From: Nitrospirota bacterium
GTDB lineage: Bacteria > Nitrospirota > Nitrospiria > JACQBZ01
Direction: 5' to 3'
DNA length: 64,000 nt
NCBI GenBank assembly: GCA_016201865.1
Contig: JACQCA010000039.1
Coordinates: 5,327 to 69,326 of the forward strand
The notes under the pieces were generated by a model. It worked only from the letters and a program-made list of their open reading frames with translations, was not told the DNA's origin and searched no databases. The position numbers were made by a program, and so were the translations under genes. Each line of letters starts with the position of its first letter. Position 1 is the first letter of the stretch. This document shows, piece after piece, positions 11,664 through 18,607 of the stretch.

Positions 11664-13808
11664 TCACGACTTTACCTTGAAGCGTCCGATGGATTGTTTA
11701 AGATGCTCCGCCTGTTTGGCCAGATCCTCGACCATCGTGTTCATTTCGGACACCACCTTCACGCTCTGCCGCGAGAGGCTCCGCCCGTCTTCCACCGAAC
11801 GCATGATCACCTCACTTTCACGTTTCTGTTCATTGATGGCATGGGCGATCTGTTGGACGCGTTCCGTGACGTTTCCGACCGCTTTGGTGATCTGACGGCT
11901 CCCCTTGGCCTGTTCTTCCGTCGACATCTTGACCTGACGGGTCATGTCCCTCATCCGCTCGGAGGCCTGCATGATCTGCTCGCTGCCCCGGCTCTGTTCC
12001 TGGGTCGCCTTGGAAATCTGCTGCACCATGGTGTTGATACGCTGGATGGAGTCGGTCACCAGTCGAATTCCCCGCGTCTGTTCGACCGTGGCCCGTTCGA
12101 TCTCCCGGGCCATCCCCGTGGATTTGGTGGCCGTATCGAGGATCTTCTTGAGGGCCTCCCCCGCCTCCAAGGAGAGGCGCACCCCCTCTTCAGTGCTCTT
12201 GGCCCCGTCCCGGACCGATTCCACGGCGTCCTTGGCCTCGGCCTGCACATTGCCGATCAACTGGGCGATTTCTTTCGTGGACGTCCCGGTGCGATCCGCA
12301 AGATTTTTAATTTCATCCGCCACCACGGCAAAACCTTTTCCCTGCTCGCCGGCCTGCGCGGCCAGAATGGCGGCGTTTAACGCCAACAGATTGGTCTGTT
12401 TCGTCACCTCATCAATGACCGTCAGGATCTTGCCGATCTGCTCCGAACGTTCGCCCAGGCGATTGATGACATCCGCCGATTTGACGACGGTTTCCCGAAT
12501 CTTATTCATCCCGGAAATCGTTTTCTCGATGGATTTCATCCCCAGCTCTTTCGCATCTTTGGTGACCTGCTCCGAGAGCATCGCGGACTCTTTCGCATGG
12601 TTCTCCACCTCGCGGACGGTGCTGTTGATTTCATTGACGGCGGACGCCGTTTCTTCGGCGGCGGAGGAAAGGATCGTCACGTTGTCGGCAACCTGCTTGA
12701 CGGAAGCGGACATTTGGATGATGGAGGACGAGGTGTCGTCCACCGCCGTCGACAGTCCGGCGGAATTGTTCGCCACCTCCCCGATCGAGGAGCTCATCTC
12801 CAGGATCGAGGAGGAGGTTTCTTCGGCTGAAGAAGAAAGAATCTCGACGCCCTCCGCGATCTGCTTGATCGAGCCGTTCATCTGTTCGATCGAAGAGGCC
12901 GCCTTTTCGGTCGAGCCGGCCTGGGTCTGAGCGCCCTCATACATCTGCTTGCTGCTGGTATTTAATCGGCCGGATGTGTGAGCCACATTGTCCGCGACTT
13001 CTTGGATCTGTTGGATCATGAGGCTCAGATTGCCGGACATCTTGTCGAAGGTCGCCCCTAAAACGCCCACCTCGTCTTGGGAAGTGGCATGAACCTTTTG
13101 GGTGAAGTCGCCGTCGGCGATCTTGACGGCGGCGCCCGCCATCTGCTCGATCGGCCGGACGATCAACCGGACAAAGACGGCCGAGACCGCAATGCCCAGG
13201 GCGACCACGATCACGGTCATGAAGATGACCACGGCCACCAGCCCCCTTAACTTCTCATTGAGGCTGCCCGGAGAAAGCCCGATGCGGACCACCCCGATGC
13301 GCTCCGATTCCGACGCCCCGCCCGATTTCGACTCGACGGCCCCGGAAAAATCGCCCTTTGCAACGACGGGAGACGCGATGTCGTAGACCGTTTCCATTTT
13401 CCTCATCGTGGCCGACTGGACCAGCGGCTCCCTGGCCTCCAACGCGTTCTTCGTGGTCTCGTCCGTCAGCGATTTGCCGACCTCGGATGCAGTGCTGTGC
13501 GCCAGGATCTTTCCTTGACGATCCATGATCATCACGTAGGCCACGTCGGATTCCGCGACGATCCCCTTCACAAAGCGGTCCAGAACCCCGGTATCCTCGA
13601 TCGAGACGCCGTAGGTGCTGTTGTAGGCCAGGTTCTTGGCCAGCGAGATGCCTCGCCGTTTGAGTTCCTCCTCAAGGGAGGTCTTGGTCCGATGAATAAA
13701 CAGCCATCCCAGGCTTGTGCCGGATACGATCAAGAGCAAGCTGATCAGCGCGATGAATTTAAACCGCAGACCGTATCGCCCGCCGCCAATTTTCAGTATC
13801 TGCAACAT
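11664..13808 (-). CDS. Methyl-accepting chemotaxis protein (short Cache-like periplasmic domain)
   Basis: Two TMs, [14 protein letters not shown]ache/PAS-like strand, [35 protein letters not shown]. Confidence 0.93.
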
Positions 13809-13840
13809 GGCCCCCTCCCGTTGGTTCGATCAAAGGCGGT

Positions 13841-14419
13841 TCAAGACGCCTTTGAAGGAAATAGCTCGGACAGATTAGAAATAATATCCGCGGTAAACCG
13901 TCTGATCTGTTCGGAATCGACTTCCGATCCCAGGGTTCGGAATAATTCCGTAAACGTCTTTTTGATCTTTGTGTCCGCGGCAAAATCCTTTTTCTGGGCA
14001 TACGGGGACAACAGCTCATAGTTCAGTCGGGCGATCTTGAGCAGCGTCTTAGAACCATCCGGTGATGCCGCCGCCTGCTGGAGCGCTTCGTCCAAGAGAT
14101 CCTTAACATCCAGGACGATTAAGGCCTGCACGCTTAATAGAATTTCATCCGGGTCCCCTTTGTCCACGGCCTTCTTGATCCCTTTCGAGGGGTTATCTTT
14201 GAACTTCGTCCCGATATGATTCACGATCGGCGAAAGGACAGTCAACGATCCCATCACCTTGGCGTATTCTTTCCGATCCGCAAAATTGAGCATGGACTGG
14301 TAAACCTCCACCGGCGGAACCCCCACCGCGTTTCGATACGCTTGCGCCAGCGCGCGATCGGCGTTTAGAAAACCGATCGTCATTGCAACCCAAAAAACAA
14401 CCGTCATTCGTTGCGTCAT
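13841..14419 (-). CDS. Secreted helical protein of unknown function, paralogue 1
   Basis: Start reassigned to ATG 14419 (GGAGAGG RBS); signal peptide ending ALA-QA; ~74% identical to 14575-15174 over the core by manual count. Confidence 0.8.
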   Translation of the reverse strand: MTQRMTVVFWVAMTIGFLNADRALAQAYRNAVGVPPVEVYQSMLNFADRKEYAKVMGSLTVLSPIVNHIGTKFKDNPSKGIKKAVDKGDPDEILLSVQALIVLDVKDLLDEALQQAAASPDGSKTLLKIARLNYELLSPYAQKKDFAADTKIKKTFTELFRTLGSEVDSEQIRRFTADIISNLSELFPSKAS

Positions 14420-14435
14420 GGGACACCTCTCCGGG

Positions 14436-14537
14436 TTAAAAGTCCAGCACCGCCTGGGCACCTCTCACAAAAACCGCCGATATCAGCCCTGCCATGCAAA
14501 GGGCAAGACATGAAAGATCATATTTTTTAACGCGCAT
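14436..14537 (-). pseudogene. 33-codon micro-ORF: signal peptide fused to a porin-like C-terminus (probable internally deleted porin gene)
   Basis: MRVKKYDLSCLALCMAGLISAVFVRGAQAVLDF* with GGAGG 5 nt upstream; QAVLDF* versus QAVVDF* at the end of porin 17426-18607. Confidence 0.6.
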
Positions 14538-14574
14538 TCGACCCTCCGCGGGTTGATCCTCCGTCATCATTTCC

Positions 14575-16952: not shown

Positions 16953-16985
16953 TAAAAACTGATAAATCAACATGGTCGTTTACCT

Positions 16986-17246
16986 TCAGGAAAACAGATC
17001 GGGCCGTCCCTTCTTCACCTTATCCAATGCGCGACTGACTAAGAACCCTTCATCCGTTAATAACTTAACCTGTTTTAAGATCTCGAGGTCCTGTTCACTG
17101 AATCGCTTAAAGAACTTTAAGCCGTGCTGTTCTAAATGTGGAGCGACGATCCCGATAAGAATCCAATACTCCAGCTGTCGTAATGAAATACCCACTTGTC
17201 GGCAGACTTCGGACGTTCCATACAGTTCTGCGCCCAGCTTAGACAT
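16986..17246 (-). CDS. Small MerR-family HTH protein without effector domain
   Basis: MSKLGAELYGTSEVCRQVGISLRQLEYW then RFSEQDL; start reassigned to ATG 17246 (GGAGG RBS). Confidence 0.8.
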   Translation of the reverse strand: MSKLGAELYGTSEVCRQVGISLRQLEYWILIGIVAPHLEQHGLKFFKRFSEQDLEILKQVKLLTDEGFLVSRALDKVKKGRPDLFS

Positions 17247-17344
17247 CGTCGGAAAACCTCCCGCGTTTTCAGTATAGCACATCCCACAGAATTGTGGGTT
17301 TGAACAAAGACAATTTTCGGTTTTCCCATAACTATTCAATTTTC

Positions 17345-17373
17345 TTGACAATAGCCTATTTCTTATGTATTGT
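17345..17373 (+). promoter_or_regulatory. Putative sigma70 promoter of the porin gene
   Basis: TTGACA-17 nt-TATTGT with TG extension in an AT-rich divergent intergenic region; AGGAGG RBS before 17426. Confidence 0.6.
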
Positions 17374-17425
17374 GATATAGTTTATGTGCTGATAGCTCTA
17401 AACCTGACAGATAGGAGGATGTTCT

Positions 17426-18607
17426 ATGAAACAAATCCGTAGAAATCTGGTGATCCTAAGCGTGATCGGGTTATTAGCCTTTGGAAGCGGCATCGGTTAT
17501 GCAGCCGAAACGTCAAAGGTATCCGGGCTCCAATACGGAAGCCCGGATACCTTTGCGGAGTTTCACGGGTTCATCAATCTTGAATATTTCGATTTCCAGA
17601 AAGATGGACAGAGCGATGAGGTCGGAGGCCCGGGAACATCCACGTTCGACCTCCACAACTTCTATTTCAATTCGCTTGCGAAGATCAGACAAAACCTCAC
17701 CGTCTTAAGTGAAGTGGAATACGAACACGGCGGCAGCGGCGAGATCACCTTGGACCGCGGCTTCCTTGATTGGAACCTGGCCGCCGATTATCTTTCGCTC
17801 CGTCTGGGCAAGTTCTACTCTCCGTTCGGACTTGAAATTCGAGATTATCAAGCCCCGATTCGTAAGCTGATCAGCCGACCCCTCATGACGGACGCACTGC
17901 TCTTCACCGAATGGACCGAGGTCGGCGTCAACGCCTATGGCCGGATCAAGCCCGATCCGGTCGGATTGACCTATGAGGTTGCGGTTGTGAACGGGCCTGG
18001 CGATAAGGATAAAAATGGCAATCCGATCGATTTTCTAACGCAAGGCGAAGCAGCCCGCCAGGACCGGGACAACAACTCAAGCAGAGACGTCATCGCGCGG
18101 GTCAGCGTTCCGTTTCAACTGGATGAAAGCCTGATTGAAATCGGCGGGTCCTATAGCGGCGGCCGGTACAGCGCGACCGACGCCCCCGAAAAACTGAACT
18201 TTTCTCTAATGGGCGGTGATCTTCAGGTCCAGGCGGCCGGTCTTGTTCTGCGCGGAGAGTATGTGAAAAGAAAGGCGGATGTCCCGGGCCCGGTCACGGG
18301 CAAGGTGAAGGTGGATTCCAAAAGCTATTATGTGCAGGGCTCCTACCGCTTGAACTTCAATGAGGAAGGACTGAATTACTTAGAACCGGTAATCCGGTAT
18401 GATTATCTCGACCCCGACACGGATACCAAGAAGAAGAAGGATGAGACGACCCAGATCGCACTGGGAATCGGTTACTCTCCTTATCCCCATTTTGTCATGA
18501 GAGCCGAATACCAGATAAATAACAGGAAGAACGATCCGACGACAGCGGTAGATGAATCGAAGTATCATCTCAACGGCTATCTCCTTCAAGCCGTCGTGGA
18601 TTTCTAA
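17426..18607 (+). CDS. Outer-membrane beta-barrel / porin-like protein
   Basis: Signal peptide, amphipathic beta-strands, EVEYEHGG and LRLGKFYSPFG motifs, terminal Phe (QAVVDF). Confidence 0.82.
   Translation: MKQIRRNLVILSVIGLLAFGSGIGYAAETSKVSGLQYGSPDTFAEFHGFINLEYFDFQKDGQSDEVGGPGTSTFDLHNFYFNSLAKIRQNLTVLSEVEYEHGGSGEITLDRGFLDWNLAADYLSLRLGKFYSPFGLEIRDYQAPIRKLISRPLMTDALLFTEWTEVGVNAYGRIKPDPVGLTYEVAVVNGPGDKDKNGNPIDFLTQGEAARQDRDNNSSRDVIARVSVPFQLDESLIEIGGSYSGGRYSATDAPEKLNFSLMGGDLQVQAAGLVLRGEYVKRKADVPGPVTGKVKVDSKSYYVQGSYRLNFNEEGLNYLEPVIRYDYLDPDTDTKKKKDETTQIALGIGYSPYPHFVMRAEYQINNRKNDPTTAVDESKYHLNGYLLQAVVDF

Follow-up and report, generated by a model that had tools for sequence, protein, structure and literature searches.

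Why would a chemosensory (Che) gene cluster carry the gene of an outer-membrane porin and, next to a chemoreceptor gene, two genes for small secreted helical proteins? The question is raised by a DNA stretch of 64,000 nucleotides (assembly GCA_016201865.1, contig JACQCA010000039.1, positions 5,327 to 69,326; below, the whole stretch is called the window) from a groundwater Nitrospirae-type bacterium, in which one complete Che cluster, the only chemosensory gene cluster of this organism, extends from 2.9 to 22.4 kb. The answer proposed here, to which we give not quite an even chance, is that the genes of the porin and of the helical protein make up a conserved pair, an envelope module through which the periplasmic Cache-type domain of a membrane sensor would receive its input, in a pathway that would end in the synthesis of cyclic di-GMP (c-di-GMP). 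The genes on which this proposal turns, including that of a methyl-accepting chemotaxis protein (MCP), are listed here by their coordinates in the window.

17426..18607, + strand: divergently encoded outer-membrane porin of 16 strands, with a signal peptide, the motif EVEYEH in a strand and VVDF at the C-terminus (Pfam Porin_O_P, AlphaFold2 model, Foldseek)
14575..15174, - strand: helical protein H2, the conserved orthologue, 199 amino acids, with signal peptide (no Pfam or NCBIfam match)
14436..14570, - strand: remnant of a second porin, 44 codons, with a signal peptide fused in frame to the last four codons (comparison with locus L064)
13841..14419, - strand: helical protein H1, an extra paralogue of 192 amino acids with signal peptide, directly upstream of MCP-A (AlphaFold2 model)
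11664..13808, - strand: MCP-A, with sCache_3_2 periplasmic domain, HAMP domain and MCP signalling domain (Pfam)

Recurrent linkage of porin, helical and sensor genes

The genomic context of the helical gene was compared over 38 loci, namely that of the window, a second locus of the same genome, 31 loci from genome searches and five metagenome contigs, none of which was dropped. Helical matches were sought in 61 relatives, in a 401-genome sample of the class and in a 401-genome sample of the phylum, of which 14, 21 and 9 genomes, respectively, were positive; for the metagenomes, a scan with H1 alone returned no locus, and a second scan with an alignment (A3) returned the five. The open reading frames (ORFs) of each locus were labelled with profiles of the window proteins and with Pfam. 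In 23 of the 38 loci, a helical gene directly adjoins a porin gene of the same family, and in 27 such a porin gene is encoded within five genes of it; direct adjacency was observed in nine of the 11 taxonomic families with a helical gene. An MCP or other HAMP sensor is encoded within two genes of the helical gene in 18 loci, and a GGDEF or receiver (REC) protein within three genes in 16. Four more loci have other sensors directly beside the unit (a histidine kinase in L050, a dCache-HAMP-GAF kinase in L054, a sensor N-terminus in L060 and a GGDEF-EAL protein in L061); with any transmembrane sensor counted (MCP, histidine kinase or GGDEF-EAL protein), the figure within two genes is 18 to 22 of the 38. 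Twin helical genes, as in the window, occur in six loci. Since the host genome holds only about two strong and two to three weak porin-family genes and two MCP genes, the probability of chance adjacency is placed far below 1%. The first-pass annotation of this DNA had made its proposed pathway depend on recurrent linkage of porin, helical and MCP genes, and this linkage holds across the 38 loci. The second locus of the host genome (L008, contig C86) fits the same arrangement, in that a third helical paralogue comes directly after a paralogue of the porin (39% identity).

The periplasmic domains of the neighbouring sensors follow the type of helical gene. Sensors beside genes of the main helical subfamily (subfamily 1) have in common the sCache_3_2 domain of ~150 amino acids (E 1e-27 to 1e-59; MCP-A, L037, L040, L065), and those beside genes of the divergent subfamily 2 have in common a periplasmic domain of ~300 amino acids (E 1e-26 to 1e-109), which is carried by four MCPs (L056-L059) and by two HAMP-PAS-GGDEF-EAL proteins (L055, L061). 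When the search was reversed, in five genomes for each domain, the 300-amino-acid domain was found at helical loci in all six of its occurrences and the sCache domain in five of seven; one of the two remaining sCache occurrences lies on a contig that begins just upstream of the MCP gene, and around the other (30% identity) neither a helical nor a porin gene occurs within 16 kb. The periplasmic domain is thus kept while the output is swapped, which argues that the porin-helical module would work with the periplasmic part of the sensor, regardless of its output.

Several variants of this arrangement were observed. At L047 (5992-10367, - strand), the helical gene is followed by genes for a TonB-dependent receptor and a GAF-HD-GYP protein, in place of the porin and the membrane sensor. 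In one genus (L038, L041, L043), the porin-helical pair adjoins mfd and two genes for SurA-like peptidyl-prolyl isomerases (PPIases). A small secreted protein of 145-183 amino acids with a partial, weak PBP_like_2 match recurs (L065:3786-4337, L066:4178-4729, L050:8562-9020, L056:2064-2501), and in L065 and L066 its gene follows another porin-family gene, between those of CheA and MerR. A PBP_like_2 module (partial, E 1.6e-6) is also fused C-terminally to a helical-family domain in L050 (5183-6148), where the fusion gene is flanked by the genes of a REC-GAF-GGDEF-HD-GYP protein and of a histidine kinase.

The porin, the helical proteins and the second-porin remnant

The AlphaFold2 model of the porin, built with 20 relatives, has a predicted local distance difference test (pLDDT) of 77.8, and comprises 16 strands, with two short helices in a loop that points inward. 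In Foldseek searches it matches the classical trimeric porins OmpT, OmpU, OprP, OprO and OmpF/C at E about 1e-13; the product of 17426-18607 is a real porin. The Porin_O_P score is 34.6 bits against a gathering cut-off of 20.9, over residues 273-393 only, and relatives at other loci score 24-40 bits; with NCBIfam, the only match is of LbtU type and below threshold (24 bits, cut-off 90). The likeness to OprP (E 3e-13, TMq 0.62) and OprO (TMq 0.61) consists of the 16-strand barrel, the inward-folded loop and the Porin_O_P score above cut-off, but identity is only 12-15%, and the general porins OmpT, OmpU and OmpF match equally well. In OprP itself, anion selectivity is due to an arginine ladder and a lysine cluster. 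An acidic E-x-E-x-E strand motif is conserved, and would be compatible with cation selectivity. A promoter-like site (17345-17373) precedes the gene, and no inverted repeat resembling a MerR operator was found in 17200-17460. Prediction of a complex between porin residues 27-393 and H2 residues 24-199, with custom alignments, scored 0.00 and 0.02, where the mark is 0.32.

The family of the helical proteins has neither a name nor a solved structure. No Pfam or NCBIfam model matched H1 or H2, and no Pfam model credibly matched 11 helical proteins of subfamily 2. A word-based search found 34 close homologues of H1, the named ones being hypothetical proteins of Nitrospirae metagenome-assembled genomes; a profile search over 1.84 billion cluster representatives returned 324 clusters at E <= 0.001, nearly all of 180-220 amino acids, and a search of the ESM Atlas yielded only unnamed 'hypothetical protein' clusters. 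Orthologues of H2 sit between the CheW and MCP genes in L034-L036 and L065-L068. The first-pass annotation had called the twins of the window 74% identical, a figure that is right for the mature core (73.8%, 104 of 141 residues) and not for the full length, where identity falls to 119 of 201 (59%; 58% by BLASTP). Arg29, Asp104, Asp107, Tyr134 and Phe156 are invariant in proteins of the main subfamily, and the family alignment has no conserved His, Cys or Met.

In the AlphaFold2 model of H1 (pLDDT 89.6), the whole fold is helical, and its C-terminal part forms a four-helix bundle. Neither Foldseek against the PDB at E <= 0.001 nor a profile search of the PDB gave a match, and a wide search with VIA-align returned generic four-helix bundles only (PsbQ, LytS-N, PcaY-LBD, talin and others, Z <= 9.2). 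EfeO, EfeM and Algp7 match H1 weakly in Foldseek (E 0.2-0.5, template-modelling score 0.27-0.42, root-mean-square deviation 14-18 Å) and are absent from the best 50 matches of the VIA-align search. Metal or redox sensing had earlier been suggested from the haem-c MCP and from a resemblance of the porin motif and the helical pattern to proteins encoded beside FTR1-type iron permeases; this suggestion found no support, the EfeO-type matches being too weak and no His, Cys or Met being conserved in the helical family. Two further identities were rejected: that of a solute-binding protein of MBP or PstS type for H1, whose model is all-helical instead of having two alpha/beta lobes and which has no Pfam match to such proteins, and that of a CpxP/Spy protein for H1 and H2, in which the LTxxQ motif is absent and no Pfam match appears at E 0.01.

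The 44-codon ORF between the two helical genes, already suspected to be what is left of a porin-type gene, can be understood by comparison with the metagenome contig L064, where a porin gene follows an H2-like gene. The ORF matches the signal peptide of that porin at 19 of 32 positions (E 2e-11), and its DNA is collinear with L064 from the end of the helical gene to the Ala-Gln-Ala site of signal peptidase, past which it carries the last four codons and the stop common to these porins. On this comparison, the remnant is what an in-frame deletion of nearly the whole mature porin, between two stretches coding for Ala-Gln-Ala, has left. The suspicion is thereby confirmed, through the signal-peptide match, the collinear DNA and the shared C-terminal residues. 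In the related metagenome contigs L065-L068, an intact porin gene (402-404 amino acids) occupies the very position of the remnant, after the H2-type gene and before that of MCP-A, which counts in favour of the proposed module. The ancestral order was likely H2, porin, H1, MCP-A, and the order helical-porin-helical-sensor of L060 agrees with it; L038 shows a tandem form, with porin-helical twice. Contigs from two of four sequencing runs span the remnant junction without differences; all four runs stem from one study and possibly from the source sample, so that these contigs are not independent support. In runs X1 and X2, a 4345-base contig spans the twin helical genes without differences, and the low-depth runs X3 and X4 break within 14467-14603.

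The Che cluster and its c-di-GMP output

The cluster is compact, mostly on the - strand, and flanked by purB (22649-23941) and by purQ/purL (below 2443). Its gene content was established from the ORF listing and from Pfam and NCBIfam scans of the window proteins, in which every part that the first-pass annotation had listed was found in place. The features that complete the list given above, one of them a helix-turn-helix (HTH) protein, are the following.

21152..22399, - strand: DUF4388 (PATAN) protein, first gene of the cluster (Pfam DUF4388, E 5e-27)
20751..21122, - strand: CheY-like single-domain receiver (Pfam Response_reg, E 2e-29)
18665..20725, - strand: CheA, with Hpt, H-kinase_dim, HATPase_c and CheW-like domains and no receiver domain (Pfam)
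18615..18648, both strands: G+C-rich hairpin of 15 pairs with A-run and T-run flanks, at the place where the convergent genes of CheA and the porin end
16986..17351, - strand: short MerR-type HTH protein with no effector domain, likely start 17246 (Pfam MerR_1, E 5e-7)
15955..16878, - strand: REC-GGDEF diguanylate cyclase, presumed output of the pathway (Pfam GGDEF, E 6e-44; REC, E 3e-29)
15236..15958, - strand: CheW with a long disordered N-terminal extension (Pfam CheW, E 7e-37)
11178..11654, - strand: second CheW (Pfam)
8892..11174, - strand: MCP-B, with a periplasmic haem-c (CALCH) PAS-like sensor (Pfam Mcp40H-20_sensor)
7806..8864, - strand: zinc-ribbon and receiver-like protein, ZnR-REC (Pfam Response_reg, E 1e-9; CxxC pairs)
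5775..7799, - strand: HEAT-repeat protein (Pfam HEAT_2, E 8e-107)
4879..5766, - strand: CheR methyltransferase (Pfam)
3823..4875, - strand: CheB methylesterase (Pfam)

In the order of transcription, the genes for DUF4388, CheY and CheA are followed by the hairpin and by the porin gene on the + strand, and then, again on the - strand, by those for the MerR-type HTH protein, REC-GGDEF, CheW, H2, the 44-codon ORF, H1 and MCP-A, and finally by those for the second CheW, MCP-B, the zinc-ribbon/receiver protein, the HEAT-repeat protein, CheR, CheB and a GAF protein. The hairpin is strong and terminator-like on both strands; its position between cheA and the porin gene implies that the cluster is divided into at least two transcription units.

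The scheme that we infer, for the physical contacts as for the ligand, the direction of signalling (including the order porin, helical protein, MCP) and the phosphotransfer to REC-GGDEF, would run as follows. The porin would admit, or report, an external signal, which H2 and H1 would take up in the periplasm; they would then dock on the sCache_3_2 domain of MCP-A, in a manner comparable to that of MBP on Tar or of phosphate-loaded PstS on CtpL. MCP-A and the haem MCP-B would together control CheA through the two CheW proteins, CheA would phosphorylate REC-GGDEF so that c-di-GMP is made, and CheR and CheB would provide adaptation. MCP-B itself scores 27.9 bits with Mcp40H-20_sensor (cut-off 27), its CALCH sequence being a CxxCH motif. 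It shares a CxxCH in the periplasmic domain with the haem-c PAS-like sensors GSU0582 and GSU0935 of Geobacter (PMC8396549), but the similarity is weak and limited to about 55 residues around the haem motif (PDB 3b47 and 3b42, E 0.002-0.009; 3b47, E 0.0019).

That the pathway ends in c-di-GMP, as the first-pass annotation had supposed, is plausible. REC-GGDEF has an intact GGDEF motif, with an RxxD site five residues upstream. The host genome, 95% complete, contains only two MCP-signalling genes, both in the Che cluster, and in it no match to FliG (FliG_C) or flagellin (Flagellin_N) was found; it encodes seven T2SSE-type ATPases, five PilB/GspE-like and two PilT-like. Given the REC-GGDEF gene inside the cluster, only two MCPs and neither FliG nor flagellin found, the pathway looks like a non-flagellar one that writes c-di-GMP. 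The DUF4388 protein has a c-di-GMP-binding motif of MshE type (NCBIfam NF053729, 37.3 bits against a cut-off of 38) and could receive the c-di-GMP made by the cyclase of the same cluster. The MerR-type HTH protein, which recurs beside REC-GGDEF in the related Che clusters L034-L036, L053, L065 and L066, may be a c-di-GMP-linked regulator: a paralogue of it (E 2e-23), encoded divergently at L008 (12236-12979, + strand; contig C86), is fused to a degenerate GGDEF domain and adjoins a GGDEF-HD-GYP gene and the second porin-helical pair of the host genome. The same locus carries a Pup-ligase gene (2544-3920, + strand; Pfam E 3e-156).

Alternative explanations, known systems and significance

Several observations weigh against an input module coupled to sensors. 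About eight loci have a porin-helical pair and no sensor in the fetched stretch (L008, L038, L041, L042, L043, L048, L051, L064), and in six a lone helical gene lies among housekeeping genes (L039, L044-L046, L049, L052), which means that the pair, or the helical protein, also functions where no sensor adjoins it. In genome G001 (L036), helical and MCP genes are retained in the Che cluster, and no porin gene occurs in the 19.5 kb that were fetched. Many loci are orthologous, and the counts therefore overstate the number of independent events; in addition, the ORFs of the loci come from a custom simple caller and not from curated annotation. Finally, the H1 model is a generic four-helix bundle with extra helices, without sign of a ligand pocket.

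These loci lend themselves to another explanation, which is held to be unlikely but survives best among the alternatives, namely that the two genes encode an uptake pair, with the porin as substrate-specific channel and the helical protein as periplasmic acceptor or gate. The Cache domains of the sensors would themselves bind this substrate, and co-location would reflect co-regulation and not contact. Small ligands are indeed commonly bound directly by Cache domains, the eight or so sensor-less pairs would be accounted for, and the TonB-dependent receptor in the stead of the porin at L047 would tie the helical family to outer-membrane transport in general. However, no inner-membrane transporter recurs beside the porin-helical pairs. 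Moreover, because the type of periplasmic domain tracks the helical subfamily, and the 300-amino-acid domain was found in the five genomes only at helical loci, the coupling is tighter than co-regulation needs.

Considerably less probable is a switch like YfiBNR (TpbB), in which c-di-GMP is reported to be controlled by a protein of the outer membrane, a regulator in the periplasm and a HAMP protein of the inner membrane (PMC4655355, PMC4887326). The helical protein would here inhibit (or activate) the sensor, and the porin would sequester the helical protein when the envelope is perturbed, so that envelope stress or surface contact would be reported. The three tiers correspond to YfiB, YfiR and YfiN, and the c-di-GMP output is in keeping with them; relatives combine the module with HAMP-PAS-GGDEF-EAL proteins, twin helical genes recur in the six loci mentioned, and the Wsp system, of Che type with a REC-GGDEF output, is reported to answer envelope stress (PMC9170161). 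However, the helical protein and the porin are related to YfiB and YfiR neither in sequence nor in fold (no Pfam or NCBIfam match for the former, and an all-alpha model), and sensor-less pairs are hard to fit with a pure repressor model. YfiB is a Pal/OmpA-like lipoprotein in contrast to the porin found here, YfiR is unrelated, and the receiver here is an MCP that feeds a Che pathway. The idea that there is no functional link, the porin and helical genes having a housekeeping role in the envelope (such as a porin and a factor that assembles or anchors it) and only hitch-hiking in the Che cluster, draws on the SurA-like PPIase genes beside the pair in one genus and on the six loci among unrelated housekeeping genes, but is very improbable given that the sensor linkage recurs in at least nine families, with varied gene orders and outputs, and that the reverse association is strong.

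The input module can be set against a few known systems. In Escherichia coli, the chain LamB, MBP, Tar leads from an outer-membrane channel through a periplasmic binding protein to the periplasmic domain of an MCP. In Pseudomonas aeruginosa, phosphate-loaded PstS is reported to bind CtpL and to serve both transport and taxis (PMC4926252). The succession of a channel, a soluble periplasmic protein and the periplasmic domain of an MCP is the same here; in contrast, the soluble protein is an all-alpha bundle of ~170 amino acids instead of a two-lobed alpha/beta binding protein, no ATP-binding cassette importer is found alongside, the three genes are clustered, and the module also stands beside histidine kinases and GGDEF-EAL proteins. 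In MipA-MipB of P. aeruginosa, an outer-membrane barrel with a charged channel and its envelope partner have been proposed as co-sensor for the ParRS kinase (PMC10936184), thus a barrel with a partner acting for an inner-membrane kinase. The families are different, MipA being a barrel of another type and MipB a lipoprotein of beta-lactamase fold, and the operon there is controlled by the two-component system instead of neighbouring the sensor gene. As regards the pathway downstream, the cluster resembles Wsp in encoding MCP, CheW, CheA, CheR and CheB together with a REC-GGDEF protein. The Wsp system (WspA-F, WspR) is a Che-type pathway that ends in a REC-GGDEF cyclase, its kinase WspE being a hybrid of CheA and a receiver. 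The present cluster has a CheA devoid of a fused receiver, a separate CheY, the DUF4388, HEAT and ZnR-REC proteins, Cache and haem MCPs, and the porin-helical module; it follows the logic of Wsp, but the lack of a fused receiver on CheA excludes it from the Wsp group.

Tripartite envelope sensing is thus already known, and what is new here is the parts and their modular reuse. In literature outside subscription journals, as judged by titles and the beginning of abstracts, no description was found of a porin and a periplasmic helical protein in a Che cluster or beside Cache sensors. A broader claim is possible, albeit doubtful: the helical family of ~190 amino acids would be a new class of periplasmic co-receptors that couples a dedicated porin to Cache-type sensors, as a portable trans-envelope input cassette plugged into chemoreceptors, histidine kinases and c-di-GMP enzymes, and it would provide the main input of the only, c-di-GMP-writing Che pathway of a non-flagellate host.

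How signals that cross the outer membrane reach inner-membrane sensors is a matter seldom addressed, and few tripartite envelope sensing systems are known. The locus provides a candidate system made of three recurrently linked genes, with a periplasmic sensor domain that is kept and outputs that are interchangeable, and the pattern of gene neighbourhoods suggests a new kind of through-envelope input for bacterial signalling. The module supplies testable partners for orphan Cache-domain receptors. It also offers a way into the signalling of uncultured Nitrospirae-type bacteria from groundwater, in which the sole chemosensory pathway appears to control c-di-GMP and not flagella.

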